A DNA stretch of 64,000 bases from Schmidtea polychroa (Eukaryota), in NCBI GenBank assembly GCA_044892525.1, contig CM097886.1, positions 90,520,001 to 90,584,000 on the forward strand, in the 5' to 3' direction. The notes beneath the pieces are model-generated. The model was given only the letters and a program-made list of their open reading frames with translations, was not told the origin of the DNA and did no database searches. The translations under genes were made by a program, and so were the position numbers. How positions within the stretch are numbered: the stretch's first letter is position 1; each line of letters starts with the position of its first letter. Shown here one piece after another: positions 28,150 through 62,824 of this stretch.

Positions 28150-30339
28150 CTATTTATTTATTCGAGTGCTTGTGGATACACGATATTTTTTTCCGTTTGG
28201 TGCGTACACGAATAAATCAGAAGGTTTTTCGACGCCTGAGCTGGCCACATACAGTTGTCCACGTGAGAAGAACGGATTCTTCAAATCTAGTCTACACACT
28301 TGCAGCGATTGTCCTTGTGTTTTGTTGATGGTCATTGCAAAAACAATTTGCACCAGAAACTGTAAACTTTTGAATTCAAATTGTGTATCTGTTAGCATCA
28401 TTGGAACAAGTGGAAACAGTACATCTTCCCCCTTGAATTTTCTATTTAAAATTGTAGCTTCCATGACACTGTTCATCATCTTTTTCACCAAATGTCCTGT
28501 ACCGTAGAAAAGTCGTGGTGGATTGATATTTCGTAGAAGAATGATAGGCACGTCAATTTTCAATGTTAAAGTGTGCGGTGGTATACCTGGCAAATCGGTT
28601 AATTCAAGAATTCTGTTAGGTTATTGACAACTTCGTCTTAATTCATCACATTATCGATGGACTTATACGATGGACTCATAGCACGTGCATTGAGCATTGA
28701 TGATTTTTATAATTGCGCGCAATATTTGGAGAAAATCTTTCTAATCAATTCGTCTTTGGTTGATATCATCTTAAAAAATTTTGTTGGTAATGTAATACAT
28801 TGTGTAGATTCTTCAATTGCCATCTTCCTTTTTCACAATATCCAGCAATGATTTTACGAAACGTTCGGCGGATGCATCATTTTGTAGTTGAACATGCATA
28901 TTGGTTTTCAAAGTAAATTTTACATGTCATTATAGAACTGATGATTTGAGATAAGCATTAAGTTCATCAACCAGTGTTGAACGTTCTATAACAAGCAGAG
29001 TTTGTAAAAAATCACCAGACAATAAAATGATTGCTCCACTGAAGGGCTGTCCATTTTCACTCAAATCTTACAGCTTACGATTGAGCGCTTTTTGTGAGCC
29101 ATTATGTATTTATTTATTGCATTTTAGCGTCTTAGTGGTTTGCAAATTCAACGGCAATTTCATTGCTGAATGCACTGTTCGACCACCATCCAAAAGTGTT
29201 GCCGCAATTCCAGATGATGCAATTGCCAGTGCAATTTTATTCCGTGATCACGTGGTTGTTAAAATGATTCAAACGAGAAAAGTTTTACCGTACTTCCGTG
29301 CGCATCTATGAATTACAATCCGCCACTTTGATTTGTAATTGCTTGTATCTTATACAATGCGTTGTTCTGGAAATAATTTCGGAAGATTCTTTTCAACAAA
29401 TGTACCCAAATCGACGATATCGAAGTGTATTTCACGTTGCAAATCACGATAATAAGCGTCATTTGCCGATCAATTCGGTGCATACATTCCCAACCGTATT
29501 AATTCTTTGTTAATGATTGCCAAACATATATCCTCGATCGAAACCAACGCCTCTTTATACAAGTTTGGTGTGAATTGCATTTCCGGATTCCGATACTCGA
29601 AAACGACGTAGGATGTCTTTACTTATGTAATCTTTGTATTTTTCCCAAAGATCTTTCGGATTGTATTGTAAACCCGTTGTCAATATTATCGCAAATAGCG
29701 TGCGTATTTGCTATTGTTGATCAGTGTTGGATGCATCAGCGAGTGCTGTGTCCCTATGGGAAACGTTTTCAAGAATATTTCATTCTTGACAAACTTCTCG
29801 ATAAGTCACACATACTTCACCATTTACTGTTATCAGTTTATCAGCATTTCGGTCCACGTACGTTAACTAACAATAATCGCAAGTAAAAACATTCTTGATT
29901 GTTTGAATAAACTGTATACAGACGGCCTAAGGAGTCGGAAAAATATAAATTCGGATGTTCATCAACTGCTTTTCCCCGTTTATGACGTTAAAACCTTTTC
30001 GGTGATGCTGAAATTTTTTAACAACGTCCTAGATAAATTCAAAAAATTCTCCAAATTTATTTTATTGGAACCACTGATTTCTTTGCAAACCGGTGAAAGT
30101 TGATCAACGTTGTCGATTCAATATCAATACTAATCATAAAATTTTAATTTTTAATGGCACTTATTGGTGATATTTGAATACCTTTACTTATAAACGAGGG
30201 CCCTGGAGGTTGATATTTAAAAGGTTTGTATGCCAGAAACCTTCACGGGAGTGTACTCAACAACTTCCCAGAGTTTCGTGGTGATCGGATAAATGGTGTA
30301 GTAATGCATAAAGGACAAACAGGCAGCAGATAATATAGA
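28150..30339 (-). mobile_element. Decayed, internally deleted Helitron (PIF1 helicase part of RepHel)
   Basis: G.PPH.L.LK...PIILLRNINPPRL, FAMTINKTQGQSL, FSRGQLYVA, NIVYPQALE*; upstream fragments DA.G..GKTF, IALAIASSGIAATLLDGGRTVHS, RLYTV...QECFYLRLLLVNVRGP; candidate A|TC 5' end at 30339. Confidence 0.9.
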
Positions 30340-30942
30340 TTGGTTAATTCATGACACCTCTTATATACCTTTATAAATCCTAATTAATCTACATTATTTT
30401 TTATACATCCCCAACATATTTAATCAGGGCTAGTATGAGGCGGGTTCAATACTTGAATATCACGCAGGCGGATCCCTGAAAAATCACTGAAGGCGGCCAA
30501 ATTTGACTTAAACTTTTTATTCTCATTGCAATTTCAATGTATTCAATATTTAGAGTATTAAAAACTATATTTATTAAAAAATAGTTAAGCAGGCGGAAAA
30601 CTTGACTGAAATTTCTTATTTTTTATTTCAATTTCAATTTCCATTTGCAATTTTCATTCTAGCTTAATAATGTGTTGTTGGGCTAGAAGCCAATCTTGAA
30701 TTTTTTATATATCGTTGTTACTTTTCTTGTTTTAATCCCATGAGTAATGATGTAATCGAGATGGCCACACTGCATAGAAAATGCAAGCAGAAACTTAATA
30801 CTCTAGAAACACCAAATTAAAAAAACTAAAAAACAAAACAAAAATCATTATCAACCGCAAGCAGTTGCACAAGAGACATATTTTAAAAAGCATAAAAACT
30901 ACAAAAATCGTCGAAAAAGACACATACAGATACTAACTTATT

Positions 30943-32022
30943 TGTTAGGTTCGATGGGTAAGTATTCGAACTAACACAAAAACGTTTAATCGGACTCCAA
31001 ATAACTTAAAATGCGCGTAGGTAAATAAATAAGAAATATGTTTTAAATATTTATTAGCAATAAAAAGTTAGTTACATGATAATTAATATAAAACACGCTG
31101 CTTTCTAAAAGTACAGAAAACGGTTATTTAAACCGCCCTAAAGAGTATTACTAAGAATCAAGGCTGGCCCTAAATGCGCCAACAGCCCGATATAGGTGAA
31201 CGGAAAAGAGATAGGGAAGTTTACCAAATGTTACGCGATGGAGTCAACCCAGAAATTGGTTAACCCTTTTTCAAAAAATATTAGCAACGAAACAACACAA
31301 AAATACGTGCTGACGTTACTGTTTCCCTTGTTTAAATTTTATTTAATCAAATAGATTTTTATATAGATATTTTTATTTATAATTATTTAGATAAGAATAA
31401 TAAATACTAACTAATATAATTTCCTGCTTATTTAAATTTCTCGCGGAAAATAGCTAAAACCACAGACTGGTTGTTGAATTAACTTCTAATAATATTCTTC
31501 CTTTGATTTAAATATCTCCAAAGAATATTATAATTTTGAATAAAGAATATTCCAAAATCAGAATTACAAAAATTAATTTTTCGATCGATTATTATTTAGG
31601 GTGAAAATTCCGTCTACTGTTAAATTCCTAGTTAGACTGCAAAATAAATGTCAACTGACGTGAATTGCTTTCAAATCAAATTGATTTCTTCTTTTCTAAT
31701 TTTAACTACTGCGGCTATGTTTCTTTCTGGTCTACTTACCTCAAATTCGTCCTTCAGCTCACATTTTCTACTGGTATTTATACCATTTTATTTATTTAAA
31801 TCTATTAATAGTAATTATTTAATTACTATTTTTATTATATATTTTTATACAAATACTATTTTTATTACAAATCTATTTTTAGTAATTATTTATTACTATT
31901 TATATTTTTAGTTCCAATTTTAGTAATTTTTTAAATACTATTTATATTATAATTCTAATTTTAGTAATTAATTATTATTTAATTTCAAAACATTTAATTC
32001 CGGTTCCTACTGAACCCCAACA
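30943..32022 (-). repeat. 3' LTR (1080 bp)
   Basis: Direct repeat of 43885-44963; by eye 4 substitutions + one 1-bp indel. Confidence 0.97.
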
Positions 32023-32035
32023 TGTCTTCCCCCTA
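32023..32035 (-). promoter_or_regulatory. Polypurine tract
   Basis: Minus strand TAGGGGGAAGACA immediately before TGTTGGGG start of the 3' LTR. Confidence 0.85.
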
Positions 32036-32081
32036 ACAAGATTTTCGTCCCGAAAATTAAAGCGGTAAAGACAAGACAATT

Positions 32082-32230
32082 NNNNNNNNNNNNNNNNNNN
32101 NNNNNNNNNNNNNNNNNNNNNNNNNNNNNNNNNNNNNNNNNNNNNNNNNNNNNNNNNNNNNNNNNNNNNNNNNNNNNNNNNNNNNNNNNNNNNNNNNNNN
32201 NNNNNNNNNNNNNNNNNNNNNNNNNNNNNN
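32082..32230. other. Assembly gap (N run) in the 3' UTR of the Gypsy element
   Basis: 149 N. Confidence 1.
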
Positions 32231-32414
32231 AAAATAATCAAAGATTGTTCATGAAGGAAATGTCAAAATCAATACCAAAATCAAATTAATCAAATATTGT
32301 TCATAAAGTAAATGTCTGTCGATTTGAATAACTGGATTGGATTGAATTGTCGAAGGTGCTGGGATTGAGGACGTATAGCAAATTGCTAGGTCCATTGAAC
32401 ACATAGCCGAATTG

Positions 32415-34481
32415 CTAGTATTTTCTCCTTTTCATGACCTTGGCACTTTCGTTACGGATCCTTTGTTCTACTATGTCTGGTCTGTAACTGATCACCAAAG
32501 TCTCCCGTGTACTTACCTCTTTGTACACAATTGAGGAGATGATGTACGAGCCCTCATTAGCCTCCAATACTCCGTAATCGGGGAAATTGGATACGGCTAC
32601 TTCATGGATTGGGCCTCCGTCGTATTCCTTGATACGCGGTTTCCATTTGCTGTCGGGTCTCTGCCACCAACTAGGATCTTCCCTGTCGAGATCTTTCCGT
32701 ATTTTGATTGAGTTGCCCCTTCCGACGAACTCGCCTTCCTTCACGATAATAGGCTCTCCTGCAATTGTGGGTTCTTTCTTTGTTGCCAATATCTTGGTCA
32801 ATGCAGGATCTGGTGGCTGATAGTGGGTTTCTAAGAGATCGTCATCCTCATCCTTGATGGATATCCTAGGCATTTTCTTTTTTGTACTCTTAGGAATCTC
32901 CTTTTTCCTTTTCGTAGAGGTAGGGACATTTTTCTCCTTGTCCTCTTTCTGGGTGGGTTTCTCCGTTGTTTTCTTTTTAAATTTTAAATCATGTAGCTTA
33001 AGTAGTGGTGCTACGGCTTGGGGTAATGCTCCTCCTTCTGCTCCTTGTTTGGGTTCACTCAACGGGGCTAATGCTTTCAAGATCTTGGTGACCCGTTCAA
33101 CTAACTTTTCTGCTGGCGGTGGTTTTTCTGTTTCCATTTTAGTCGAATTCACCACTCTACCGTCATTGGTAAGGTTGACTTGGAGGCAGTTATCGTCTGC
33201 ACTCTCACAAGTGGCATAGTCGTCTTCTTCAGCAATTGAAATGGCTGGCGGCGACAAGGAATCTTCTTCCACTATTTTCAGCAACTTCGACCTAGGGATA
33301 TCTTCTTTTACATAGCTCTCCATAGCTAGAGGTTTCTGCATGCTTGAGGTACCAGGTTCCATCTGCTTTATTTGTGAAGACACCACCTCCTTCCGGGTGT
33401 CTGGTGAAATGTCATCAACCCAGATATCTCGTAAATTGTCGAAAATCTCCGTTTGAAGGTCCGAGAAGTGATGTGCCTCTTTACCGGTGACTGCCTTTGC
33501 CAAATATGCCAAACGGTAATACCCGTTGCATTTCTTTAGGTCCATACTTTCGAGGCATTTAGCTGCGCCTAACTCACGGATTCCGAGTGCGCGCTGCATT
33601 GGGAATCTGATTACTTCTAATAGGTCCTTTACTAGCAACCCCACGATGATTTTCCCATCGCAGATTTTTCTAATTCTTTCGGCACAGTCTTCTCCGTCGA
33701 ACTGTCCGGTTATTTCTCTCTCGGTCATACCATGCGCATGCGATTGGTAGTGTTTGACCTGTGCTCTGGGGGTAACTCTAGTGTTGAGTATCAGATCGCC
33801 ATTGAAATGTGAGATTGAGATGGCCACAATTGCCGGTTTCTAGAATTGTCGTAGTGTAGCGTAGTGAGCTGCTACGAAAATGGTGAGGTTATCCTCTTGT
33901 CTAGGGTCCAAGCGCTGTCTAACGAAAGACTTAAACGTTTTAATGTCGTTATCATTGACATTATATGTCCAATTTGGGTCATTAACCCATCTCGTTTGTG
34001 TTTCTCTGTGAGGTTCCAGAATTTCCATTGCTATGATGGTATCTATTCCTTCACATAACAGTGAGATGTTCTTTTCCCTTCCATCCCCGTTTTCAATTTC
34101 CAGGGTTGTATGCTTTTGCAGCAAAATGGGGTTTGTGGCACCAGAAACATAAACCGTAAATGGTTTGTTAATGGCGTGTATCCACAGGTGGTTGGTCAGA
34201 CTATGTCTGCCAAACTCAGGCATGACCTCGGTAAGCCTAATACAGCCGTTATGCTTGCCCGGGATTCTTGAAATAATCATTTGACGCTTTGGGGCCTCGT
34301 CAAATTTGAAATTATTGGGTATGCCTGAGCAATGTCCGTAAAACCAGTGCCTTTGTCCTTTTCTGCTTTGCTCCATTACCTGCTTCTCCAGGTTTTTATA
34401 AATAAGTTTTTCCTTTAGTAAGGTCGTAGCACATATAATGCTATGTCTTCCTTGGTATTGGGATATTGGATGGCTCTGCAT
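32415..34481 (-). CDS. Accessory ORF (one frame, single in-frame TAG at 33842-33840): putative AlkB/2OG-fold-like domain + DEDD exonuclease-like domain + charged tail
   Basis: ORFs 33840-34499 and 32415-33827 are in the same frame. AISISHFNGDLILNTRVTP...VKHY.S.AHG.T...KI.DGKIIVG....DL.V...IR matches REX1/REX4/ISG20-type exonucleases but ExoI acids are missing (IFVAAHYA). AlkB-like call is weaker. ATG at 34481 follows a TTTCAG acceptor. Confidence 0.6.
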
Positions 34482-34679
34482 TCCTGAAATAAAAATCATT
34501 AACCATAATATCAGATATACTGATATGTCATATTAGGCTAAAAAGATATGCATGAGTCTTATTATAAAAGATCTACATATGCTGAATTTTAATGCTACCT
34601 GGAGCTCTACGTAAATATAGATTTTAAGATATATATAAATATTTATATATGATTTTTCCCTCGGGGGAGTCTGTAATTG

Positions 34680-35596
34680 TCATAATTGCGACATCAGTAC
34701 TCCATCGTAAGCCCTTATGGCTTGTCTAAAATATAGCTTGGTCCAAATACCCATAGCTATCAGTGTAGTTATTAGCGATAGTACGGCCGATACCGTAATC
34801 CATACCCCTATGGGTATTTTCAGAATATATCCTACATTAAAGTTTGTGATGGCATTACAATCACAACAGTTTGTCAGGTTTGGGGTCGTTGGACAAGATA
34901 TTTGTTTGATAGGTGGCAACTGTCTAAGATGTTGCCACATTGCGGGATGTATTACCATGTTTTCCCTGACTACTTTTGGTGGTATCTTCGTTATAACTGG
35001 CTGTTTAAGAGGTAATATCTCCTCGAATACCTCGAACCACCTATCGTCCTGCCGTTTCCTCGGACTATAGTATATAACTAGAACCGAGTAATCTACGGAC
35101 TGATTTAGATACATTTCTTGGGAGGGTTCTGGTCTAACCATAATGTTTCTCTCGTGGTTGGTCCGTCTAGAATACTGACTTTCATCTTCTCCTCCCTGCT
35201 AATTTCTTGACTAAACTTTACTTTATTCTTTTCGTAGGATATCGATATGCGATTTGTGAAATCCGCCGTCCTCAGGATCCAATTTGATACGTGATAGGTA
35301 TACCAACCACTCTGATATAACCTTGATGCTGCGATATGCAGTTTATAATCCGTCTCGGCTTTTAAATCATATAAATCCCACTCTTTTTCTTCTGAATTGA
35401 GTTGGCGGATCCGCAAGTATTTGTTGTAAAAATGTAAATTGAATTTTGTAGCATTATCGCACGTTGTGAGTATGCTAATTCCGTGATACGTTCTTATGAA
35501 ATGCAAATGTTCCACTTGCATCGCCATAGGCTGAAAATATGCCTTTTTATCCCTTTTTGCCATCGCCAAAGTCATCATACAGCTTATTATCAACAA
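34680..35596 (-). CDS. Accessory type I membrane protein with fibronectin-III-like segments (frameshifted in this copy)
   Basis: Hydrophobic N-terminus LIISCMMTLAMA, FN3-like WDLYDLKAETDYKLHIAA, second ..YL.Q.VDYSVLV.Y, Cys cluster SCPTTPNLTNCCDC, TM IPIGVWITVSAVLSLITTLIAMGIW, short tail; frame changes near 35200-35140. Confidence 0.55.
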
Positions 35597-36935
35597 ATCT
35601 CAATGGGTATCGGTGTTCTTGTGCTTCTTCGGTAATGTTTGGTTTCACCTGTTTCTCTGGTGCTTTTACTTTTGAATTTCCAGAGGTTCCTTTTGTTGGG
35701 ATTTCGCACTTTTTACACCGATTAGCATGTACCATTATTGGTTCTGCTTTTCTGTTGGCTACGAGTTGTAATATGAGATTTGTATCTGTGGTTCTCAATA
35801 CCTCATATGGCCCTTTGAAGTTCCGCATGAGTTTTGGTGATAAGCCTTTCTTGTTATAATGACTTTCTAACATCACCTGGTCTCCAACCAATATGCCATG
35901 ATCCTTGGCTTTTCGGTCGTGATAATCTTTTGATGCTTCCTGATTATATTTTATACTGAGCCCTGCTCTGGCCCATGCTACCTGCATTCTTTCCCTCATT
36001 TCCATTAGATAATCTTCTTGATCTAAATACTGTGTTGCTTTAGGGAAAAACAACAGGTCTACTGGCATTTTATTTTGCCTCAGATACATAAGATAAAATG
36101 GTGTTTCACCTGTTCCTTCGTGCACCGCATTTCTGTATGCAAATAAACAAGATGGAATGTGGATGTCCCAATCCGTTTGCCCTGAATTTATATATGATGC
36201 TAACATATTAGCTAATGTTCCATTAAATCGTTCTACTAGCCCATCCGTCGGTGGGTGATATGGGGAAGTGTTCAACTTTAGAACTCCGAAATAATCATTT
36301 ATTCCTTTGAGCAAATTACTCATGAAATCAGCTCCCCGATCCGTTAATAGCTTTGTAGGTACTCCATACCTAAAGACAATTTGTTCCACGAAAATTCTAG
36401 CTATCGTATCAGCTTTGTGATTAGGCATCGGGTAGGCTTCTGGCCACTTAGTCAGATAGTCGCAGAACACTAATATATACTTGTTTCCGCTATTAGATTC
36501 TTTGAAGGGCCCCAACACGTCCATTGCCGTCATTTCCATAGGTGTAGATGGTACTGGCATCGGCTTCATTGGTACGTGTGGTTTCTTTCCGGTATTTCTT
36601 CTGGTGATACAGATCTTACACGTCTGACACCAGGTTTTAACATCTTGTTTCATGCCGGGCCAAAAGTATTTTTGTTTTAACCTCGACAATGTTTTTCTGG
36701 ATGACAGGTGGCCTCCTAAGACCCCATCGTGATACTGCAACATGAGTGCTTCACGGTATTTCTTAGGAACCATTATAACAATATCTCTTACATCTGAATA
36801 TTTAACTAGTCCCTCTTCCAGTACAAATTTGTCTTTATTCTTTTCCCAATATTTCGTGAATTCTGTGGGCACGTATTTTGCTTCTAAGGCTTGACGAATA
36901 ACATTTATTTCTTCGTCAGATTTTTGTGCCTCCAT
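35547..36935 (-). CDS. Integrase (HHCC, DDE core, GPY/F)
   Basis: HDGVLGGH...CQTC, MDVLGP, LTDRGADF, GLVERFNGTL, KGPYEV; in frame with pol across one TGA. Confidence 0.95.
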   Translation of the reverse strand: MEAQKSDEEINVIRQALEAKYVPTEFTKYWEKNKDKFVLEEGLVKYSDVRDIVIMVPKKYREALMLQYHDGVLGGHLSSRKTLSRLKQKYFWPGMKQDVKTWCQTCKICITRRNTGKKPHVPMKPMPVPSTPMEMTAMDVLGPFKESNSGNKYILVFCDYLTKWPEAYPMPNHKADTIARIFVEQIVFRYGVPTKLLTDRGADFMSNLLKGINDYFGVLKLNTSPYHPPTDGLVERFNGTLANMLASYINSGQTDWDIHIPSCLFAYRNAVHEGTGETPFYLMYLRQNKMPVDLLFFPKATQYLDQEDYLMEMRERMQVAWARAGLSIKYNQEASKDYHDRKAKDHGILVGDQVMLESHYNKKGLSPKLMRNFKGPYEVLRTTDTNLILQLVANRKAEPIMVHANRCKKCEIPTKGTSGNSKVKAPEKQVKPNITEEAQEHRYPLRFVDNKLYDDFGDGKKG

Positions 36936-36947
36936 TAAATCAGCTAG

Positions 36948-39308
36948 TCAGTTGGCTTCTCGAGTCAGTGTGAAGATAGTCCCTTCTAAACGTCCTTCCT
37001 TCACATCTTCTGCTTCTTCTTCCTGGTCCATTCTTGATAAAGCATCTGCATTACCATTGTGATCTCCTTTTCTGTAATGGATTTCTATGTCATATGGCTG
37101 TAAAATTAGTGCCCATCTGACTAGTTTTGATGTATCCATTGTGTGTTTTGTCAGCCACTGTAATGGTCTATGATCGGTGTACACTATGATTTTTCGACCC
37201 CATAGATAAATCCTAAACTGGGTTATAGCATATACAATTGCTAAAGCCTCTAGTTCTATCACTGCGTAGTTTCTCTCGTGTGGTTTTAACCATCTGCTAG
37301 CGTATGCAATTGCATACTCATCTCCTAGGTCATCTCTCTGACCTAGCACAGCACCTATGCCCCGAGTGCTGGCATCTGTCATAATCAAAAATTGTCTCTC
37401 AAAGTCTGGAAATCGCAATATAGGTGGCTTGACGAGCTTTTCCTTGAGCATATCAAATGCTTCCTGCTGTTCTGTTCCCCACACAAATTTGAGGTTTTTG
37501 CCTTCTAACTGCGTGAGTGGAAAGGCTATAACCGAGAAGTTTCTAATGAACTTTCTATAGTATCCGACTAGGCCTAAAAACCCTTTGATATGTTTAACGG
37601 TTTTAGGCTCGGGGAAATTCTTTACCTTTTCGACATTAGCCGGATCTGGTTTAACCCCATCTCGAGAGATGATATGACCAACATATACTACTTCTGGTTC
37701 GGCCCATTTACATTTGGTTGGTTTCACTTTCATGTTTGCGTTGATCAACCTCTTGAATACATCTTCTAAATGTTCCAAGTGTTTTTCCAAATTTGGCGAG
37801 AATACTATGACGTCGTCAATGTATACCATCGCGTGATGCACATCCATGAGCATCAAATTCATTGCTCTTTGAAATGTGGCTGGAGCTCCTGTGAGTCCAA
37901 ATGGCATTACGTTATATTCGTAATGACCCATACTCGTAGAAAACGCTGTTATTGGTATAGTCTCATCTTTTAGCTTAATTTGATAAAATCCCTTTTGGGG
38001 GTCCATTACTGAGAAGAACCTAGCGTTTCTCATGCGTCCATAGATATAATCTAACAATGGCAATGGATGGCTACTTTTGCATGTTGCTTCGTTAACCATG
38101 TGATAGTCGTTACATAATCGTACTGATCCATCCTTCTTGGCTACCACTATCATTGGCGATTGATATGGTGATTTACTATGCCTGATTATGCCATGTTTTA
38201 ACATCAATTTCACCTGTTTATCTACTGATTCCTCCAGACTGAATGGGATACGGTATGGTTTCAACTTTATAGTTTTTGTATTGGTGAGAACAATCTCATG
38301 TTCTAACAGGTTTGTTTTTCCCAGATCGTATTCATGTTTCGTGAATACCTGGTCGTATTTCCTTAATAGCATATTTACTTGGATGTTTTCCTTTCTGGTT
38401 AGTACTTTGCTGTTTGCTGTAGGTGCATCGTAGTACTCAATGTCTGGATCCCTTTCTTCTGCCTTTACGGTGAGTATCGACCCTTCTCCCGTGGCTTGTG
38501 GCTCGTTTTGTTTCCAGATTCTGCCCACTCTGGTATCTGGATATAAGTAAAGTGGTTTAATGTCCAGATTGGCTACTCTGATTGGTATTCTGCCATTGAC
38601 TATTAAACCTACGCTATGCGTAACTGGTAAATTGTATTTCTCCGAAAATCTTTCGTCCGGTTCGAATACAACTTCACCTTCCCAATTATTGCTTGTAGTT
38701 ACAAAGCATACCGTTTCTGCTCTGGGTGGTATGATAGTTGTATGATCTATATAAGCTGTATCATCGTTGTAAATTTTTCTCTTTTTACCTCGTGCTCGGA
38801 TTAACAATCCAGATGCACAATCGAATACTACCCCTCGTAGTCTTTTTAGGATGTCCATACCCAATAGTGATTCGGCTGGGAGACTTCTCATCACTATGAT
38901 GTCGTGGTGGAGCTCTTGGTCACATAGCTTAATCTGGCATGATAATGATCCTATTACATTTAATGAGGATCCGTTTGCTCCTGTTAATTTTACCCCTGCC
39001 GGTTTTAGCGACTGCAGTTCATGATGGTTTAACAATTTAGCTTCAATTATGGTACCATCTGCTCCTGAGTCTATCACCGCATTAACTGTATGTCGGTTCA
39101 CTCTTATTTTTATCATTGGCTTTTTATCCAAGTTCACTGGGTTATTGACCATCAAGATAGTATCGTGCGAGATACCGATTGTATTGGCTCTCGTTTGTTC
39201 TGCTTCCAGTAATTCAGGATCACTCAGTTGAGGATTATACTCTTTAAATTTAGCTTTAATTGACTCTAACGCTTCCTTTGGATAGTGCACTTTAGGTAAT
39301 TCTGGCAA
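36948..39308 (-). CDS. pol: Pol: aspartic protease, reverse transcriptase, RNase H
   Basis: VIDSGAD; YQSPMIVV.KKDGSVRLCNDY, MPFGL, YIDDVIVFS; TDASTRGIGAVL, ELEALAIV, YTDHRPL, NADALSR. First ATG at 39152. Confidence 0.97.
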   Translation of the reverse strand: MPELPKVHYPKEALESIKAKFKEYNPQLSDPELLEAEQTRANTIGISHDTILMVNNPVNLDKKPMIKIRVNRHTVNAVIDSGADGTIIEAKLLNHHELQSLKPAGVKLTGANGSSLNVIGSLSCQIKLCDQELHHDIIVMRSLPAESLLGMDILKRLRGVVFDCASGLLIRARGKKRKIYNDDTAYIDHTTIIPPRAETVCFVTTSNNWEGEVVFEPDERFSEKYNLPVTHSVGLIVNGRIPIRVANLDIKPLYLYPDTRVGRIWKQNEPQATGEGSILTVKAEERDPDIEYYDAPTANSKVLTRKENIQVNMLLRKYDQVFTKHEYDLGKTNLLEHEIVLTNTKTIKLKPYRIPFSLEESVDKQVKLMLKHGIIRHSKSPYQSPMIVVAKKDGSVRLCNDYHMVNEATCKSSHPLPLLDYIYGRMRNARFFSVMDPQKGFYQIKLKDETIPITAFSTSMGHYEYNVMPFGLTGAPATFQRAMNLMLMDVHHAMVYIDDVIVFSPNLEKHLEHLEDVFKRLINANMKVKPTKCKWAEPEVVYVGHIISRDGVKPDPANVEKVKNFPEPKTVKHIKGFLGLVGYYRKFIRNFSVIAFPLTQLEGKNLKFVWGTEQQEAFDMLKEKLVKPPILRFPDFERQFLIMTDASTRGIGAVLGQRDDLGDEYAIAYASRWLKPHERNYAVIELEALAIVYAITQFRIYLWGRKIIVYTDHRPLQWLTKHTMDTSKLVRWALILQPYDIEIHYRKGDHNGNADALSRMDQEEEAEDVKEGRLEGTIFTLTREAN

Positions 39309-39351
39309 TGTTGAACATTATTAAAAAAAACAGATTATTAAATATGGTATC

Positions 39352-40835
39352 TTAGCCGATTTTCCATTGGTGTCGTCCTGTTCTGAGTGTTGTTTCCCTT
39401 GCATGTTCCCGCCCCTCGTTTGGTGCGGATGGTAAACTCCTCAAAGTTGGCAATTGTACATATCTTGGACTTCTCTTGAATCTGGGTGACTTTATGTCGA
39501 ATTTTTGGTCGGAACTGTCATATTCTCCTTCTGAGGACTGTTTTCTCACGTAGATTTCCTTTGATTGGTCATATGGAGGGAGATATTCCTTAAATCTCGA
39601 TTTTCTTTGTTGCTGAATCGGTTTTTTGTTGTAGTTCTGTTTTCGTGATTGATTTGATCTTGAAGATGTTTCACGAGAGCCTCCATTACCTCCTCCCTTT
39701 GAATTGTTATCGTCCCGATAACTCGAATACTCCTCCATTTCTGTTCCAATTACTTTATGTTTGACCAAATATTTCTGTCTAATTTCTTTAATTTTTTTTC
39801 TGTGATGTTTGAATAATGCAAACTCTGCACACATAGGACATAATCCTAATAGCAGTTTCCATGACCATCCCCCAATTTTGAATATGCTATATGTTGACAT
39901 CAGTTGTGTAATTATCAGCTTTAAAATTACAAATATTGCGTAGATTCCTGAACATCCGGCGACGAAAATACCAAAATTGGTAAATCGTCCCCATATTTTC
40001 ATCATTACGTTCTTTGCTGCTTCTTTATAGTGTTCCGGTCCAAATAATAGATTGTAATCTGGTCGTATTAAGCTATCATGATAAATTGTTCTTATAATTT
40101 CCGTGATACCTCTGTCTCTGATTTGTGGGAATAGCAATGTCCTTCTTGCTTCCTCGATATCGTCGGGAGTGTAAATCCCTCCTTTTACTAATTCGTCTAA
40201 TGACTTGAATTCCAGATTATCCTTTAATTTAGTTACTTCCAAGGTCTCTACCCGTTGTGTAGATGGTTTTCTTTCCGGCAAAGATATCCACATGTCATTT
40301 ATTTTATATAACGGTGATATTGCCGGGTTGCATATGGCTGGTTGAGGTTTAGCGTTTTCCTCAAGTAACTTTCTGGTTACTGGCATCACAAATCTCAATT
40401 TTCCTTGGTAAGACACTGGCAGTTCTAGAGTGCATTGATTAAATCTGGCTAATTGTACTTCCACTGGTTTACACTCATAGCTATATATAGCTTCTCCCAT
40501 GATTCTGCCAAACATTCCCTCTTCCAATAACATTGGAGTAACCAGCTCTGGGTTAACGATAGATATTGCTAATCTATTTCGGACTATTTCACGATTTAGC
40601 TTGCAATCGTTTGCAGATCATGATATAAATAATCTACTTTATTATTTATATAATTCGTGATTTTGATATCCTTTACATGTAGGACCTTGGAATTTCGAAT
40701 ATATTCTCTTGACAGGAAGATTCCTTTGTATTTCGTCTCGTATACTCTTTTCCCACATTTAGTCTTTTTATCTTTTCGGACAAATCGAATTGCTTCTGTC
40801 TTGTCTTCCGATATCAACACTAGAGGTGTGTTTTG
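39352..40835 (-). CDS. env: env-like chuvirus-type (class III) glycoprotein, N-terminally truncated, one frameshift near 40605
   Basis: TPLVLISED...CGKRVYETKY.GIFL...YINNK.DYLY, then DCKLNREI...GEAIY...C.PVEV......C..ELPV.Y....F..P.TR.L...C...Y.I...W...GIYT..D....R..L.FP, and W..F..FG...AG..GIY....LI.......GWSW.LL; pattern typical of Jingchuvirales-like G proteins. Confidence 0.85.
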
Positions 40836-43785
40836 GAATCGTTTCCTTTTCCCAAAATTTGTTTACGGTCATCCATACCTCCAGGTAATAATCTACCATT
40901 TCGACTATTTGATCGATTTCTCGTTCTATAAGCCTTTTATCATCCCCTACCCGGGCTAGGGCATTTTGAATTAACAATGATAGTGATGTTACCACTTTCC
41001 CTCTTGTTAATCCTTGCTGTACGAAGGCTTCTATGGCATCCTGAATATCTCTAGTTGATACATCTTTGGATACTCTTTCCATTGTCTTCTTGACCTCTTT
41101 CGTTATTTTCTTTACTTCGATCCCCTTGATTTTTGGAATTCTCCATTCGGGCCTGATAATCCCGATCATTTGTTGTATACGTTGCCACAATAACGACCTC
41201 TCTGACGTTGTCTCATCTTCCACCTGGTCGTCCATTTCTTGAGCTATCCCTGTTAATGTTTTTAACTGAATTTTCCGAATCGTTTCCGGATTTAACTGCT
41301 CCTTGGGTGGAGGTTTCATTTGATCCTTTCTAGGACGTCCTCGTCCGTCTTTTTTCACTTTCTCCGGGGGTTTTTCAGCCTCCGGATTTGTTATAGCTTG
41401 TGACGTAGTAGCTTCTACGTTTGTTTCTCCTGGATTTAATCTGACGTACTCTGAGAAGTAATCTTCCTCGTCAATATCCACCATTTGACAGGGATTAATT
41501 TCCTCTAGTCTTATTTCCTCGATCTCTTCCGCAATTTCGTTTGCTATATCTGGCAGTCTCATTAATGACCACTGGGACTCTGGTGGAGTTACTGGGATGA
41601 TCATTACCGTGGTTGTTGCCAGCGGTAGACAACCCACATCCACTAGATATTCATCATCATCCACTTGCCTACCATGGACCATTGTCAGGAATATACCTGT
41701 AGTTTGATCGGTGGCAATCACATCTCTCCTTAATATTTTGACTTTGATATAACAATTATAAATCATTGTTAATTGTTCTTTTCCCATCATTCGCACGTCT
41801 AGATTAATGTTGCCTTGTCTATCAGGCTGACTTCGGATAGCTTTCCCATTTTTCCTCATCAGCGCTTCAATTTGCGTCTGGAATGGGCTTGTTTCCTTTA
41901 CCACTGGTAGTATAAGTGGAATTATTGCTTCCAACAAATCTACTGGTATTCGTAATACTAACATCCAGTCAAGTATTTTCTTTATAGTTTCTCCATCTCG
42001 TGGAGATTTCTGCAATTCCAACCCTAGTCGCTGGGTTAATTGTTGAGTTTCTTCCAATCTCTCTATTTCCATCTGAGTAATCAAGAATACGCTATCTTGA
42101 TCCATTACTGCCACTGGCTTCTGTGCTCTCTTTGCTGTGAGCTTCGTCACTCTACCTGGGAGTATCCCGTTTTGTAGAAGTGTTTGATTTGCTTCTAGTT
42201 TTGTTCCACATAAGTATAAGTCATATCCTTGATGCTTAATACTTGTCAATGTTTCCGTTAATTTATCGGCTCGACTTCTTACATTTATATCGAGATTATA
42301 CTCTTTATCCTGTGGTAGCTTTATATTGAGCTGAGCATCTTGGAGATCCCACTCATGTTCCATGAGTTTTCCTAATTTCCTTAGGATTTTGTACGTGTCA
42401 TTATGATACTTTGGATCATCTTCGACCTGCGATATCAGTTTTACTACTGTATCGATTTCGTGAATTTTAATTTCTGCTTCTCCCAATTTTTCCAATTGTC
42501 TGGCCAGCTTCTGCTGGTACTCATATCTGGAATCCACCAGTTTTAAACATTTTGTTAGGGTATCTGACCCTTCTATTACCTTTGCTTTCCCTGGTAAGGT
42601 TCTATCGAACTCGCTTAGTATGGTGGCCATACTAGGTTCATCATCGGAACTCTCCTCTGATTCCGTTTCCTGAAGGTCCTCTCTAACGGAGTCCTTTTTT
42701 CTGAGAAATTCATCTCTTCCAACTTCTACCATGAAGATGGTGCCTTCTTGGTCGGTCAATCTAGCCAACCTATTCTTTTCCTCCTGGATTTCCATTTCCA
42801 GTTGTTGCAGATAAGTTAACCCTTGATCCTGGTTAACCATAAAAGTCGTCTTAGGCTTGTTCACATTACATCCACTCTGATTCTGAGGACATGACCTCAT
42901 CATATGTCCGAATTTCCCACATCCGTGACATTTTATCTTTCCTGATGAATTTACATCATCTCTTTTAATCGTACTAAAATTATTGCTGTTCTGAGGACTT
43001 CTAGTCTTGTAGACCGCAGCAACATGTCCCTTACGTTTACATTTTTCGCATTGCAAATTCTGTACTCTACAGTTTTCCGCACCGTGGTTATTCCGTCCAC
43101 ATTTGGTACATTGTATACTTTTGCGATTGCCCATAATTTTCCTACTGGTACAATCTTTCGCTATATGCCCTTTTCTATGGCAATTGAAACACTCTACCGG
43201 TGTTCTTTCACTGTTTACTAGGAACATGGTTGACTTTTCCAAGCTGCTTTCAATTACGACAGCTTTCCGTGTTAATTCGTCAAAATCATCACTAGTATAT
43301 AATATTAGGGCGTTCCTCATTGTAGGAGTAAGTCCTGCCCATAACTGATCCTTAACTAACAATTCTGTTGGCTTTGCCCATGTGGTTTTTGGACCAAATG
43401 CTCTTTCGGCAATTAATGATAGCTGGTGTGCAAATTCCTCCACATGTTCATTGGCATTCGGTTTTCGATGGTAAAATTGTTGTCTAAATATTCTTCCCGC
43501 ATCTCCGGGCAATATTCGAGCAGTCATTTGTTCTCTCATTTCGGCCCATGTTTTCGGTGCTTGAGCAACTGGTAATGCCATTATGTCATTATATTTTTCT
43601 CTTGCCAGCCCCTTCAGATATATGGGTAACCTTTGTATCATGATATTATCTGGATAGGCATATGCTTTGGCCATCTGATAATATTCAGACATAAACTCTG
43701 GGAATTCTCCCGGATCACCACTGAATGCCTTTACGGGCAGAGCGGGATATCTGGCAAATGCATTTACATTAGCTTCCTCTGCCAT
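40768..43785 (-). CDS. gag: Gag polyprotein, 1005 aa, with long C-terminal extension
   Basis: FSGDP.EF.EF...Y, capsid-like region, Zn knuckles CFNCHRKGHIAKDC, CTKCGRNNHGAENC, CEKCKRKGHVAAVY (degenerate), CHGCGKFGHMMRSC; later Ubl-like segment and GRGRPRK. Confidence 0.93.
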   Translation of the reverse strand: MAEEANVNAFARYPALPVKAFSGDPGEFPEFMSEYYQMAKAYAYPDNIMIQRLPIYLKGLAREKYNDIMALPVAQAPKTWAEMREQMTARILPGDAGRIFRQQFYHRKPNANEHVEEFAHQLSLIAERAFGPKTTWAKPTELLVKDQLWAGLTPTMRNALILYTSDDFDELTRKAVVIESSLEKSTMFLVNSERTPVECFNCHRKGHIAKDCTSRKIMGNRKSIQCTKCGRNNHGAENCRVQNLQCEKCKRKGHVAAVYKTRSPQNSNNFSTIKRDDVNSSGKIKCHGCGKFGHMMRSCPQNQSGCNVNKPKTTFMVNQDQGLTYLQQLEMEIQEEKNRLARLTDQEGTIFMVEVGRDEFLRKKDSVREDLQETESEESSDDEPSMATILSEFDRTLPGKAKVIEGSDTLTKCLKLVDSRYEYQQKLARQLEKLGEAEIKIHEIDTVVKLISQVEDDPKYHNDTYKILRKLGKLMEHEWDLQDAQLNIKLPQDKEYNLDINVRSRADKLTETLTSIKHQGYDLYLCGTKLEANQTLLQNGILPGRVTKLTAKRAQKPVAVMDQDSVFLITQMEIERLEETQQLTQRLGLELQKSPRDGETIKKILDWMLVLRIPVDLLEAIIPLILPVVKETSPFQTQIEALMRKNGKAIRSQPDRQGNINLDVRMMGKEQLTMIYNCYIKVKILRRDVIATDQTTGIFLTMVHGRQVDDDEYLVDVGCLPLATTTVMIIPVTPPESQWSLMRLPDIANEIAEEIEEIRLEEINPCQMVDIDEEDYFSEYVRLNPGETNVEATTSQAITNPEAEKPPEKVKKDGRGRPRKDQMKPPPKEQLNPETIRKIQLKTLTGIAQEMDDQVEDETTSERSLLWQRIQQMIGIIRPEWRIPKIKGIEVKKITKEVKKTMERVSKDVSTRDIQDAIEAFVQQGLTRGKVVTSLSLLIQNALARVGDDKRLIEREIDQIVEMVDYYLEVWMTVNKFWEKETIPKHTSSVDIGRQDRSNSICPKR

Positions 43786-43863
43786 TTGATTATCCAGTTT
43801 TACTCTGGCTCTAGTTCCTAACGCTATTTTGTTTTATTTCAATTTCTACCCGCTGATAATTTT

Positions 43864-43881
43864 ATCACGTCGGGCTCACCA
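43864..43881 (-). promoter_or_regulatory. Primer-binding site complementary to tRNA-Trp 3' end
   Basis: TGGTGAGCCCGACGTGAT, 3 nt inside the 5' LTR; its complement ATCACGTCGGGCTCACCA matches the animal tRNA-Trp 3' end (ATCACGTCGGGGTCACCA) at 17/18. Confidence 0.9.
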
Positions 43882-43884
43882 AAA

Positions 43885-44963
43885 TGTTAGGTTCGATGGG
43901 TAAGTATTCGAACTAACACAAAAACGTTTAATCGGACTCCAAATAACTTAAAATGCGCGTAGGTAAATAAATAAGAAATATGTTTTAAATATTTATTAGC
44001 AATAAAAAGTTAGTTACATGATAATTAATATAAAACACGCTGCTTTCTAAAAGTACAGAAAACGGTTATTCAAACTGCCCTAAAGAGTATTACTAAGAAT
44101 CAAGGCTGGCCCTAAATGCGCCAACAGCCCGATATAGGTGAACGGAAAAGAGATAGGGAAGTTTACCAAATGTTACGCGATGGAGTCAACCCAGAAATTG
44201 GTTAACCCTTTTTCAAAAAATATTAGCAACGAAACAACACAAAAATACGTGCTGACGTTACTGTTTCCCTTGTTTAAATTTTATTTAATCAAATAGATTT
44301 TTATATAGATATTTTTATTTATAATTATTTAGATAAGAATAATAAATACTAACTAATATAATTTCCTGCTTATTTAAATTTCTCGCGGAAAATAGCTAAA
44401 ACCACAGACTGGTTGTTGAATTAACTTCTAATAATATTCTTCCTTTGATTTAAATATCTCCAAAGAATATTATAATTTTGAATAAAGAATATTCCAAAAT
44501 CAGAATTACAAAAATTAATTTTTCGATCGATTATTATTTAGGATGAAAATTCCGTCTACTGTTAAATTCCTAGTTAGACTGCAAAATAAATGTCAACTGA
44601 CGTGAATTGCTTTCAAATCAAATTGATTTCTTCTTTTCTAATTTTAACTACTGCGGCTATGTTTCTTTCTGGTCTACTTACCTCAAATTCGTCCTTCAGC
44701 TCACATTTTCTACTGGTATTTATACCATTTTATTTATTTAAATCTATTAATAGTAATTATTTAATTACTATTTTTATTATATATTTTTATACAAATACTA
44801 TTTTTATTACAAATCTATTTTTAGTAATTATTTATTACTATTTATATTTTAGTTCCAATTTTAGTAATTTTTTAAATACTATTTATATTATAATTCTAAT
44901 TTTAGTAATTAATTATTATTTAATTTCAAAACCTTTAATTCCGGTTCCTACTGAACCCCAACA
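43885..44963 (-). repeat. 5' LTR (1079 bp)
   Basis: Direct repeat of 30943-32022, adjacent to PBS. Confidence 0.97.
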
Positions 44964-45499
44964 TATTCATAGAATAAGAATAGTAAGAAAAAGGCGATCC
45001 TTCGATCAATCAGAGAGAAAGAAAAAGTAAAATTAAAATAAAAACTGAAAAGTTAAATAAAATAAAGATATCGACCAATTAAAATGATTGAAATTTCAGA
45101 TGAAAAAATAGAAAAATAAATTCGATCTGAAACACACACACTCGATCCTGATTGGTCGAAAGCATGCAGTAACCACTTTACCCACTTGTTGCTTAAAAAT
45201 CTTTACTTATCATTAAACACTTTGGAACATTACGTACCTTCATTACTATTCAGCAAGCATCATTTTTCATTTGAATTCATATGCGACTAAATTATTTCCG
45301 TTATCATTTGGAAGAATTTTTCGACTACACCATCTATCCATTCAGAAACTTTTCTTTAAATTTTGGAAGAACTTCATTAGTACATATTTTCACTCCGGGA
45401 CAATCTGACCATTTTGTTGAAGATACCTAAATAACAATTTATAAAGAAATAAATAAAATTACCTGGTGGAAGATCGCCATGACAAACGGGACGATCTAT

Positions 45500-46411
45500 T
45501 TGAACTCAGAAAAGAAAACGGAAGTAAAAAGAAATTAAAGATGAATTAAAGGAAAAGGAAATAAAAGGAATCAAACAGGAAAATAAAAACCAAGTACTAA
45601 TTAATTAGTACAAAAAGGAAAAGGAATTTTGAAATCGGGGAAAAAGGAAAACAACAATATCCTTATCTCGACAGCCTACCAGTGATAACAGAATTGATGG
45701 TAGAAGGCGGTCAAACAAAAAAGGGAAAAAGGGAAAATAACTTGACAGCTGTCAGAGATAAAAATGGGACAGTCGGGGAAAGCAGGAGATGGAAAATGAA
45801 AAAACACTTGATTATCTAAAGTGCCACAAGAGAAGCGAACTATATAAGGGAAAACTGGTGGACATGAAATTAGAATAAAATTAGAGAGCAAATTTAGAAC
45901 GAAATTTGATACAAAAGTGACGCGAAATTGAGACAATTTGGAAGACGATTTGAGAGACGATTTGAGAGACGATTTGAGAGATAAGATTATTGGAGAAAAT
46001 TAGACAACGTTGGACGAAACGATGTTGGACAAACGATTGTGAAAAATAATTGTAAAGGAAATAATTGTGGAATAAAATTATTGAAGAGTTGAAGAAAAGA
46101 ATTAGTTGAAAAATAAAACAAGAAGAAGTTATTTGATTATTTGAATAAACTTGTGGAGAAGGTCAAAGAAAACAACCAGCTCAAAGTCCCAGTTGATAAA
46201 CCAATCGGTAATTTGTGATCTTTTAATACGGTGTCATACACAAGTGCTATTCCTCACCGAGTGTTGTAATAAGCATTGTATAGTCACCAAGCAGAGTGTT
46301 GAATTTATTGTCAGTGTGAAGTGAAAGTTTATTTGTGATTATCAATAAAGATTTCTGTTGTCAAGTGTTATTTGTGAATCGTATAAAGACACGCTTGGAG
46401 TCAGAGTAACA
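45500..46411 (+). mobile_element. Probable solo LTR, second family
   Basis: TATATAAGGG at ~45840, AATAAA at ~46345, ends GGAGTCAGAGTAACA; similar to 833-1700 (reverse); no PBS after it; left end approximate. Confidence 0.45.
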
Positions 46412-50223: not shown

Positions 50224-52273
50224 TTACAGAATATTATGGTTATCTATTGTCGACTGTTCACAAAACTTTAACCACTGGAAATAGAGAAATAGAGAAAGTT
50301 CTTCTTTATTTGAGATGGAATATTCTGGAGAATAATAATTAACTCTGAATGGATTATATTTCTCAATGGAGCTGATTGGCTTACAATATTGTGTGCAGCT
50401 AGTAATATTCTGTGTGTTTGTGATGGATAAATTTGATTGGTTAATAAAGGTTTTGACTATAAATTCATCATTTTGCTGCTGTTGGTGGTGATGGTGATGG
50501 TGATGGTGATTATTGGCATTGGAATCGGATAATTCTGAGAACGATAATCGTGGAGATTTGTCAATGAAATGATTGGTTGATAATGATTTGGCAGCGTTGG
50601 AAACGGATTTATTATTATTGTTTTGCTTGTTTAGATCCGATTCATTGATGAAATTGAATTTGAATAGAGATAAATCTAAATGCCTAGAAACGCAACTTGG
50701 GGAACTAGATTTCCTATGAATTCGATCTGGCACATTTGGCGTTGGATTTGGTTGGAATTTTGTGCTTTCTGTGACTGTTGAGTGATTTTCCTTTACAAAT
50801 CCAATCGATTCATTCTGGGTTGCTTGAATTTCATTGTTCAACTGTTCCATTTGGTCTTTATCGATCGAATCATAACGTTCGATTTCATGGAATCCGCTAT
50901 CGGTGCTCGATGTTCTCGTGTTCTCTTTTGATTCGTCGGGAATCGATGAGATTTCTGAGATGGGAATTTCGTTTCCAGTATTTCTGGTAGAATTCTCTAT
51001 GGTGTTATTATCGAGTTTCAGTTTCCCGTCTAATGCTGAGGCGGCAAGGGAACTCGTCTGGGCGTTGTCAGTAGCATCTAATGTTGAGGCGGCAAGGGAA
51101 CTAATTTGGGCGTTGTCAGTAGGATCTAATGCTGAGGCGGCATGGGAACTAATCTGGGTGTTGTCAGTAAGATCTAATGCCGAGACGGCAAGGGAACTCA
51201 TCTGGGCGTTGTCAGTGGCATCTAATACTGAGGAGGCAAGGAAACTCATATGGGCGTTGTCAGTAAGATCTAATGCCGAGGCGGCAAGGGAACTCGTCTG
51301 GGCGTTGTCAGTAGCATCTAATGCTGAGGCGGCAAGGGAACTAATCTGGGCGTTGTCAGTAGCATCTAATGCTGAGGCGGCAAGGGAACTAATCTGGGCG
51401 TTGTCAGTAGCATCTAATACTGATGTGGCATGGGAACTAATCTGGGCGTTGTCAGTAGCATCTAATGCTGAGGCGGCGTGGGAACTAATTTGGGCGTTGT
51501 CAGTAGGATCTAATGCTGAGGCGGCATGGGAACTAATCTGGGTGTTGTCAGTAAGATCTAATGCCGAGACGGCAAGGGAACTCATCTGGGCGTTGTCAGT
51601 GGCATCTAATACTGAGGAGGCAAGGAAACTCATCTGGGCGTTGTCAGTAAGATCTAATGCCGAGGTGGCAAGGGAACTAATCTGAGCGTTGTCAGTAGCA
51701 TCTAATGCTGTAGAATGAAAAAATGAACCCAACGAAGAATCTTCATCAAAGGCATTTTGCTTTACAGAATAGGGCGTCGAGTCAAGGACATTTAATATTG
51801 TCAAAGATTGAGTGGTTAAAATTTCTTCTTTTAAGGTATTTACATCTATATTTAATAGGTTGTCAATAATTTGGGTGTCTTGGGAGATAATCTGTCGATT
51901 ATTGGAAAGGGAGCAATGTGACAGCTCGGTTATTATTGTGCTGTTTTTAGGGGGAACATTTTTGTGAGGTTTTATACTGTTAGTTACTGCTAGGGTCGGT
52001 GGAATTTGGGTTAGTTTCGGAGGTAAATTATTTTTCACGGAATCGATTTTATGTCGTTTGGATTTTTTGGATTTTTTACGTTTTTTATATGATTTTTTGC
52101 TAATTTCATTTAGAACTTCTTTTTCCGATTTTTCCCCATTGATAAACTCTGTCAATAGATCTATTGGAAGGTTGGATAATATTTCAGGGGATAATGTGGA
52201 GAGATCGATTGGCACTATGTTCGAGCCTTTCGATGTTATTTGACAGGTTTGATTGGCATCATATTGTGATTCC
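50224..52273 (-). CDS. Large last exon of a low-complexity protein with 16-aa tandem repeats and His/Gln runs
   Basis: Frame open from a TTATTAG acceptor near 52273 to stop at 50224; Lys-rich NLS-like stretch, 14 repeats of LDATDNAQISSLAASA, poly-H/Q. No domain recognised; upstream exons not found. Confidence 0.65.
51029..51710 (-). repeat. 48-bp coding minisatellite, ~14 units with higher-order duplication
   Basis: Unit GCATCTAATGCTGAGGCGGCAAGGGAACTAATCTGGGCGTTGTCAGTA; variant units 2-5 recur as units 10-13. Confidence 0.95.
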
Positions 52274-55800: not shown

Positions 55801-56351
55801 AAAGAAAGACTGAAAGGTATTTTTGGGAAGAACATTGCTAAATTTTAGGAGATTGACAAGGACTATCTTATAGTCGAATTTTTTTTCATTAAATACATTA
55901 TTTGCAGCAAAAGGCCTAAATTATCAATAATAATGATAATAATATTTCAACCAAATACTTAAACACATAAAAATTAACTAAACATATAAAAAGAACAAGA
56001 CAAAAGTAAAGATATAAAATTTATTCAATAATAATCTTCATCATCTGATAACATGACATCGTCTGTCTATAAGTTCATCAATTTCTAATTGCACATTTTC
56101 TTCATTCTTTTTTTGGTCATTATTTTTAATCCTTAATTTACCATGCTTTTTTAGTGAAGACCCCCTTTTTGTATTGTAATTCGAAGGTTCCATGGAGACC
56201 CTCTCACTATAGTCAGAAAAATCCTTGCTTGTTTCTATATGATCTTTTTTTTCTATTGAAAATCGCAGAAAAAATAAGTATAGCCCACTGCAGCAGTTAC
56301 ATAACCAAAAAGCAAAAAAATCCGCCTGCAGTTGGCTACTAACTACCTACT
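52858..56351. mobile_element. Non-autonomous long-TIR element with AG termini (possibly Polinton-derived)
   Basis: TIRs AGTAGGTA.TTAGTAGCCA... (52858-~53120 vs ~56125-56351, diverged); ~60-bp subterminal tandem repeats at 53040-53260; flanks TATATT / TATATC. Confidence 0.7.
53561..55924 (-). mobile_element. Penelope-like element (RT + GIY-YIG, frameshifted) with ~660-bp inverted arms
   Basis: RT: TYFTFEQNIYKQVKGLYMGSCIS, YARYVDDIFI; FYRKP; GIY-YIG: IVYCITCNVCNEIYIGST...RVKEH; arms 53561-54220 and 55262-55924 nearly identical; degenerate hammerhead TGACAAG-GACTAT/CTT/ATAGTC-GAA at ~55853-55880. Confidence 0.9.
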
Positions 56352-59812: not shown

Positions 59813-59894
59813 ATGAAAAATATAAAATTTTTAAATCTTAAAAACTAGCAAGCCGCGCAGTTTGTATACCCAATAAAAAATTTTTTTTTTAAAA

Positions 59895-62148: not shown

Positions 62149-62293
62149 TTATTAAAGCTTTTAAATATGATACTGGTTGCATCTAAAATATCTTCAACAT
62201 CTTCAGTCGTAGAGACTTCGGGTAAAGGTCCTGAGGCTAAAGGATCTTTTCTTTTATATTTCTTAGACTTGATGCATTTATGATTTTTTTCAA

Positions 62294-62560: not shown

Positions 62561-62562
62561 TT

Positions 62563-62790: not shown

Positions 62791-62824
62791 TTTTAAATTA
62801 AAAATTATATAGTCTTACGAAGTC

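Follow-up and report, generated by a model that had tools for sequence, protein, structure and literature searches.

Organization of the element

The window, by which we mean the whole 64-kb stretch of Schmidtea polychroa DNA that was analysed, contains a Ty3/Gypsy element of about 14 kb on the minus strand (44963..30943), and all parts of the element described below lie on that strand. The 5' LTR (about 1.08 kb, 43885..44963) and the 3' LTR (30943..32022) begin with TG, end with CA, and are 99.5% identical, with 4 mismatches and 1 gap over 1081 columns. A 4-bp TSD was found at both flanks (44964..44967 on the 5' side and 30939..30942 on the 3' side), together with an 18-nt PBS (43864..43881) and a polypurine tract (PPT, 32026..32034). 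The PBS is perfectly complementary to the 3' termini of host tRNA genes, with 821 matches for the pattern in the genome and 0 for the control, and ARAGORN identified the matching genes as tRNA-Trp(CCA). A tandem array of tRNA-Trp genes with 284-bp spacing lies on contig C4, and other tRNA arrays are present in the genome. The 3' untranslated part of the element includes a stretch of N. Some contigs join the flanks 30886-30942 and 44964-45800 and skip about 14.07 kb, so that the element appears to be nested within another repeat.

Between the LTRs, Gag comprises a capsid and four zinc-knuckle positions (42880..43785, Pfam zf-CCHC), with three complete CCHC knuckles in the window copy and four in the sister copy L002. 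It is extended by two ubiquitin-like (UBL) modules (41575..42345) and followed, immediately before env, by a BCL-2-like helical module (40840..41230), both recognized by profile matches. Next come the remnant of a class III (chuvirus/gB-type) env (39352..40834; Pfam PF24664, sister comparison, and fold), the aspartic protease (PR, 38840..39110, Pfam) with a DSG motif near 39070, and a PR-RT spacer module (38493..38780) homologous to that of a Burro-like element (E 1e-19). RT, with YIDD near 37820, and RNase H of Ty3/Gypsy type (37090..38336, Pfam) are followed by integrase (IN) with H2C2, core, and SH3-like parts (35780..36947, Pfam). Downstream of integrase lie a tail with a second signal-like segment, a possibly FN3-like ectodomain, and a TM (34680..35620), and then ORF2 (32415..34680), which may have an ISG20/REX4-like DEDDh fold without the first acidic motif.

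Pfam placed the aspartyl protease, RVT_1, and RT_RNaseH at 39317-36948 and Integrase_H2C2 and rve at 36947-35547; protease, RT, and integrase families of BEL/Pao type were not among the Pfam matches. The best PDB match of the RT was Ty3 RT (E 3e-81). The PR-RT spacer module gave no dUTPase match. The PR-RT-RH-IN order, the Ty3-like RT, the TG...CA LTRs, the PBS, the PPT, and the short TSD identify the element as Ty3/Gypsy (Metaviridae). These results bear out the initial annotation, which had described a Ty3/Gypsy backbone with gag, env, and pol in that order inside matched LTRs with TSD, PBS, and PPT. It had given the range as 36948..43785; gag, env, PR, and RT do lie there, whereas integrase lies outside and the element continues to 30943.

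The window copy and its family in the genome

In the window copy, Pfam PF24664 (Monjiviricetes_fusion) was split over two frames, with one piece at 40862-40596 (model 251-324, E 9e-5) and the other at 40617-39352 (model 336-612, E 2e-50). The frameshift lies near 40610, in agreement with the earlier placement near 40605, and the loss of the N-terminal part of env noticed at the same time was also confirmed, since all 12 sister copies examined carried 854-863 extra bases at about 40830. The roughly 0.86 kb missing from the window copy corresponds to the internal signal sequence and the N-terminal half of env, and the remnant keeps the C-terminal half of the ectodomain, the TM near 39975-39900, and the cytosolic tail. 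Among the best 40 of 233 candidates, the deletion junction was whole in the window copy only. Further breaks were found near 39330, 36950, 35600, 35120, and 33840: a premature stop near 36950 cuts integrase from RT, frameshifts near 35600 and 35120 break the post-integrase tail, and ORF2 is split near 33840. In this state, the window copy is unable to make env or pol. In 7 of 10 sister copies a gap already distinguishes the two LTRs, so the damage can be explained sufficiently by decay after insertion, and the window copy was probably damaged after it had inserted. We rejected its membership in a deleted, non-autonomous subfamily: the junction is private, and its listed indels are absent from three copies chosen for their closer LTRs, as far as these copies cover them.

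We then turned to the sister copies. Gag, env, PR, RT, and IN formed one open frame in 7 of 12 copies, which had been picked for high score or long frames, so that the intact form expected elsewhere in the genome does exist. Because the frame is open across position 39352 in these copies, the stop that ends env there in the window copy is damage, and env is not the separate ORF (40835-39352) for which it had been taken. The single gag-env-pol frame reaches about 3,370 aa in some copies; 5 of 99 env matches lay within frames of 3361-3369 aa, one of them with an internal stop. A single frame implies equal amounts of Gag, Env, and Pol, which is unusual for retroelements.

A search with the C-terminal half of env gave 102 matches, the best 99 of 2300 candidates being scored, and the RT search gave 78 matches at 88% identity or above, beyond which a second family appeared at 72%. 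When the lists for RT, env-N, and env-C were combined, with three short second pieces from the env-C list left out, the window's family amounted to at least 135 loci. An env match was present within 5 kb upstream of 62 of the 78 family RT matches and downstream of one. We inspected 9 of the 16 RT matches lacking an upstream env: eight keep env or env-tail remnants before PR/RT, one has lost env along with PR, and a clean gag-to-PR junction was found in none of the nine. The order gag-env-pol was the same in all 12 sisters, in three further families, and in public polyproteins, and a contig from an independent run spans the passage from the env tail to PR (X5 record 15, 38821-39957).

The LTR pairs of sister copies were 98.6-99.8% identical (n = 10), indicating that the insertions of this family are recent, and a 4-bp TSD was present in nine of these ten copies, the remaining one being unreadable. 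The LTRs of the window copy were only 68-80% identical to those of its sisters (L001-L022), compared with 92-95% for the coding regions; judged from their sequences, the LTRs of the family appear to turn over fast, with AT-rich internal repeats. In the second GAG-ENV-POL family (72% RT identity), which has frames of 3516 aa, many copies had identical scores, indicating that this family is very young; three of its copies lie about 14.2 kb apart on contig C2. At L026:6166-10000, the 3' end of a family B element is followed immediately by a copy from yet another family with env, likely a nested insertion.

The envelope glycoprotein and its relatives

As the window copy is without the N-terminal half of env, we modelled the fold from the natural ectodomain of a sister copy with a 95-sequence alignment. 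The model reached a pLDDT of 91.4 and a pTM of 0.72 and contained a 48-residue central helix; folding from the single sequence gave a pLDDT of only 29. Foldseek returned herpes gB as the top match in the PDB (E 7e-15, TMq about 0.43) and chu-like glycoproteins as the top matches in BFVD (E 1e-37, TMq up to 0.75, 19-21% identity), the latter not being independent of the alignment, which itself contained chu-like glycoproteins. In sequence searches, env alone had no match in the PDB (phmmer), the env profile reached gB only at E 0.011, and a word-index search gave 2 matches only. The predicted structure identifies env as a class III fusogen of the chuvirus/gB type, in line with the chuvirus-like class III glycoprotein originally proposed.

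The ectodomain of the sister copy comprises 543 residues with 14 cysteines and is placed between a signal/TM segment and a TM. No canonical furin site was found in it, and there was just one N-glycan sequon. Only one strongly hydrophobic segment was found at the C-terminus of env, so the TM hairpin described earlier is not supported. In the window's family (family A), in family C, and in the public relatives P0005 and P0008, hydrophobic segments occur at the env start, at the env end, after IN, and at the C-terminus; the env-start segment of family B falls below the hydrophobicity threshold. Within family A, pN/pS was 0.06 for env, 0.03 for RT, and 0.16 for the Gag extension, values that were pooled against one reference copy and in which shared changes are counted repeatedly. 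These ratios point to purifying selection on env across the whole ectodomain, nearly as strong as that on RT. Between families A and B, synonymous sites were saturated and no dN/dS was obtained.

The env of the window's family was 63%, 44%, and 42% identical to sister-family envs, and its nearest public relatives were long polyproteins with env ahead of protease and RT. In the env tree, for which we took 50 of the 118 usable sequences (every one of the 15 polyproteins, the first 32 of the remainder in id order, and some hand-picked ones), the 15 polyprotein envs and 3 fragments formed one clade with a support of 0.996, apart from stand-alone G. The RT tree, which had one outgroup and no named references, joined families A, B, and C at 100 and united them with the Burro-like element at 98; in the env tree, too, the window's family and the Burro-like element share a clade. 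Both trees recovered (A,B),C and the same outermost pair, and differed in weakly supported middle branches. Six of the public relatives (P0004-P0007, P0010, and P0015) seem to have two aspartic-protease-like domains after env. The gag-side/env/pol polyprotein P0008 is annotated as a Flavobacteriaceae MAG protein and is probably animal DNA in a bacterial bin.

Burro / GYPSM1 are giant planarian Gypsy elements of more than 30 kb (Arkhipova & Yushenova 2019, PMC6431247, citing Jurka 2007 and Grohme 2018). The env of Burro lies in frame between gag and pol, which was called the first such case, and it matches mononegavirus fusion glycoproteins; the order is Gag, ubiquitin-like, BCL-2, env, PR, dUTPase-like, RT, RH, and IN (PMC6431247). 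In the same genome as the window, we found a Burro-like element with MATH, ankyrin, and BIR domains (Pfam, run on one of two BIR-tagged copies). Both BIR-tagged copies have the order gag-UBL-BCL2-env-PR-x-RT-IN, and the element is 36% identical to the window's family in env and 47% in RT. The window's family resembles Burro in having one polyprotein with 3-4 knuckles, UBL, a BCL-2-like module, an in-frame env, PR, a spacer, RT, RH, and IN, but it measures only about 14-15 kb, with 1.1-kb LTRs, compared with more than 30 kb for Burro. Furthermore, MATH, ankyrin, and BIR domains were not found in it by Pfam, and its post-IN tail and ORF2 had no detectable match in two Burro-like copies. The window's family is a compact relative of Burro and not Burro proper.

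GAG-ENV-POL elements with a gB-type env have been catalogued in Nematoda, Bryozoa, and Platyhelminthes (Chary & Hayashi, eLife, PMC13524379), with nine flatworm elements listed and chuvirus-like glycoproteins noted beside gypsy pol. Like Smed_errantivirus_1-6 of that catalogue, the window's family is multicopy and has a Ty3/gypsy pol and an HSV/gB-type ENV between gag and pol. In env domain I-II, 114 of the first 180 positions were identical to Smed_errantivirus_4 (63%, ungapped, counted by hand), and the cysteines of these positions line up by eye; sister family C differed from Smed_errantivirus_2 at 6 of 251 env positions (about 98% identity, also a hand count). The window's family is none of the six, the closest being 63% identical, and it has a tRNA-Trp PBS, whereas the tRNA type is given as 'none' for all six (PMC13524379 supplement). 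Its env position, the gB-like class III fold of the sister copy, and its homology to flatworm members make it a GAG-ENV-POL errantivirus of the HSV/gB type. The initial annotation had regarded the position of env between gag and pol as non-canonical and the element as a candidate new lineage. That position is already in print for Burro (PMC6431247) and for GAG-ENV-POL errantiviruses (PMC13524379), and the element is homologous to Smed_errantivirus_2/4 and to the Burro-like element. The window's family is an uncatalogued family in the known planarian GAG-ENV-POL lineage, which includes the giant Burro. What the analysis adds is this family itself, the assignment of its tRNA-Trp primer, the purifying selection on env, and the link between giant Burro elements and flatworm errantiviruses of 14-15 kb.

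The elements named NERV reportedly have a continuous gag-env-pro-pol ORF with an RNA-virus-like glycoprotein and are said to form a monophyletic clade restricted to nematodes. The flipped ENV/POL order of NERV (Sacco et al. 2022, J Gen Virol, as cited in PMC13524379) is common to the window's family, and the host phylum is different. BEL/Pao elements with a chuvirus-like glycoprotein (Dezordi 2020, as cited in PMC13524379) share the glycoprotein family PF24664 with it, and the public protein P0082 has DUF5641 followed by G. However, they belong to another retroelement superfamily with env 3' of pol, and P0082 falls in the stand-alone G clade.

How env came to lie between gag and pol admits of other explanations. 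If the arrangement were a misassembly, or a viral gene secondarily inserted in one copy, a private junction spanned by no listed independent contig would be expected, and the junction at about 40830 is of this kind. The shared order in sisters, further families, and public polyproteins, the reading of env in frame with both neighbours, and the lack of a clean gag-to-PR junction in the 9 copies checked leave this explanation a negligible probability. It is refuted for the architecture, and the private deletion is read from the assembly only; as the initial annotation had assumed, env is an integral part, carried by the sisters and joined to PR on the spanning contig. A fresh and independent capture of env from Jingchuvirales by the window's family, which had been suggested at first, is also highly improbable. 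The closest predicted viral structures are those of chu-like glycoproteins, and GAG-ENV-POL elements are not monophyletic across phyla (PMC13524379), which points to more than one origin among animals. Nevertheless, env is far closer to sister-family envs than to chu-like G, it is 36% identical to the Burro-like env, and the polyprotein envs stand together apart from stand-alone G. This clade and the agreement of the env and RT trees indicate that env was inherited along the lineage and not captured by the window's family.

Accessory modules and the proposed role of env

A profile of 6 homologous stretches from three families matched ubiquitin/ISG15 (single-domain match, E 1e-7), and a profile of the BCL-2-like module from 4 family members matched BCL2A1 (E 2e-4), BOK, and BCL-xL. 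Taken alone, the UBL stretches of the window matched nothing relevant and its BCL-2-like stretch had no match, because they are too diverged. Past IN, the frame runs on through the second signal-like segment and some 250 residues to a TM; this holds for families A, B, and C as well as for P0005 and P0008, and homology of this tail was detectable among A, B, and, weakly, C. The ESM Atlas gave an FN3 score of 0.91 with a recognition of 2259, below the tool's mark, and Pfam and the PDB gave no match; an FN3-like tail is a weak lead. Of all parts of the element, only this membrane protein downstream of integrase might come as a surprise to specialists.

ORF2 spans 761 codons from stop to stop in 7 of 10 sisters and is conserved between families A and B (36% over 440 residues). 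It resembled RNase_T in the Atlas (0.78) and ISG20L2 in the PDB (E 0.093), and Pfam gave no exonuclease match; its likeness to ISG20L2/RNase T exonucleases is likewise a weak lead. Since the first acidic motif is missing by eye, ORF2 is likely a pseudo-nuclease. Searches with the ORF2 core and with the tail alignment gave no matches, both being weak negatives. Rotifer LTR elements bear DEDDy exonuclease ORFs (PMC5408684), which are a precedent in kind for ORF2. Neither the post-IN tail nor the ORF2 pseudo-nuclease was found in print when PMC6431247 and PMC13524379 were searched, and the figures, Repbase, and Grohme 2018 may cover them; the words ubiquitin, BCL, fibronectin, exonuclease, and polyprotein do not occur in the main text of PMC13524379. 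In addition, a short hydrophobic motif recurs at domain borders in L002 and L023 (after the capsid, after the knuckles, and before PR, RT, and IN). Its pattern was drawn from family A and the shuffle test is biased, and the recurrence suggests candidate protease sites.

We are highly confident that the window element is a decayed member of a Ty3/Gypsy family that was active recently and belongs to the GAG-ENV-POL (Burro-related) lineage of planarians. Functional copies of this family would make a membrane-threaded polyprotein. Observed here are the architecture with its single frame, the class of the fold, the match to the tRNA primer, the TSD, the purifying selection, and the recent insertion; the topology of the polyprotein, its cleavage, the formation of particles, and spread between cells are inferred. 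Gag, the two ubiquitin-like modules, and the BCL-2-like module would form a cytosolic N-terminal part, and an internal signal sequence, which could also serve the BCL-2-like module as its tail anchor, would lead the gB/chuvirus-type fusogen into the ER lumen. The env TM would return the chain to the cytosol for PR, RT, RH, and IN, after which a second signal sequence, a small lumenal ectodomain, and a TM would follow. Signal peptidase and the protease of the element would free the parts, Gag would package the RNA, and tRNA-Trp would prime reverse transcription. Most likely, env would allow particles to bud and to fuse with adjacent cells, and integration with a 4-bp TSD would follow.

Spread from cell to cell in enveloped particles is probably what env has been kept for, and we consider it the most likely reason because the whole ectodomain appears to be under selection. 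The main competing explanation is that env serves inside the cell, in ER anchoring or assembly or in intracisternal particles, and that the family spreads within a cell only. A membrane-threaded polyprotein needs a signal and a TM for its topology, a furin site is lacking, and a high copy number is possible without infection, all of which would suit such a role. However, selection covers the whole 543-residue, 14-cysteine class III ectodomain, beyond the needs of an anchor, and we judge the intracellular role unlikely, at about one chance in four. Attachment proteins act as partners of herpes gB. An elaboration of the preferred cell-to-cell spread, which we regard as doubtful and less probable still, is a two-component entry in which the gB-type fusogen would work with the post-IN protein as a fast-evolving type I FN3-like receptor-binding protein, and in which a tail-anchored BCL-2-like module, UBL, and the ISG20-like pseudo-nuclease would be host countermeasures; the lineage would then be retrovirus-like and complex, and would spread from cell to cell. 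PMC13524379 leaves open whether errantiviruses of the gB type pass between cells in animals other than insects. If env is fusogenic, the several very young families in this one genome would allow a test of cell-to-cell movement.

Other elements were also observed in the window. A fragment of a protein-primed DNA polymerase B (PF03175, E 2e-8) with neighbouring ORFs at 59877-63412 is likely a decayed Polinton-like element. At 53560-55924, inverted repeats of 656 nt (99%) surround RT-like and GIY-YIG-like pieces that look Penelope-like by eye. A 682-aa frame on the minus strand at 50224-52272 contains a 48-bp (16-residue) tandem repeat, over which both strands are open, and had no convincing Pfam match. 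Finally, a helicase-like fragment on the minus strand at 28150-28620 resembles the Helitron/PIF1 helicase by eye.
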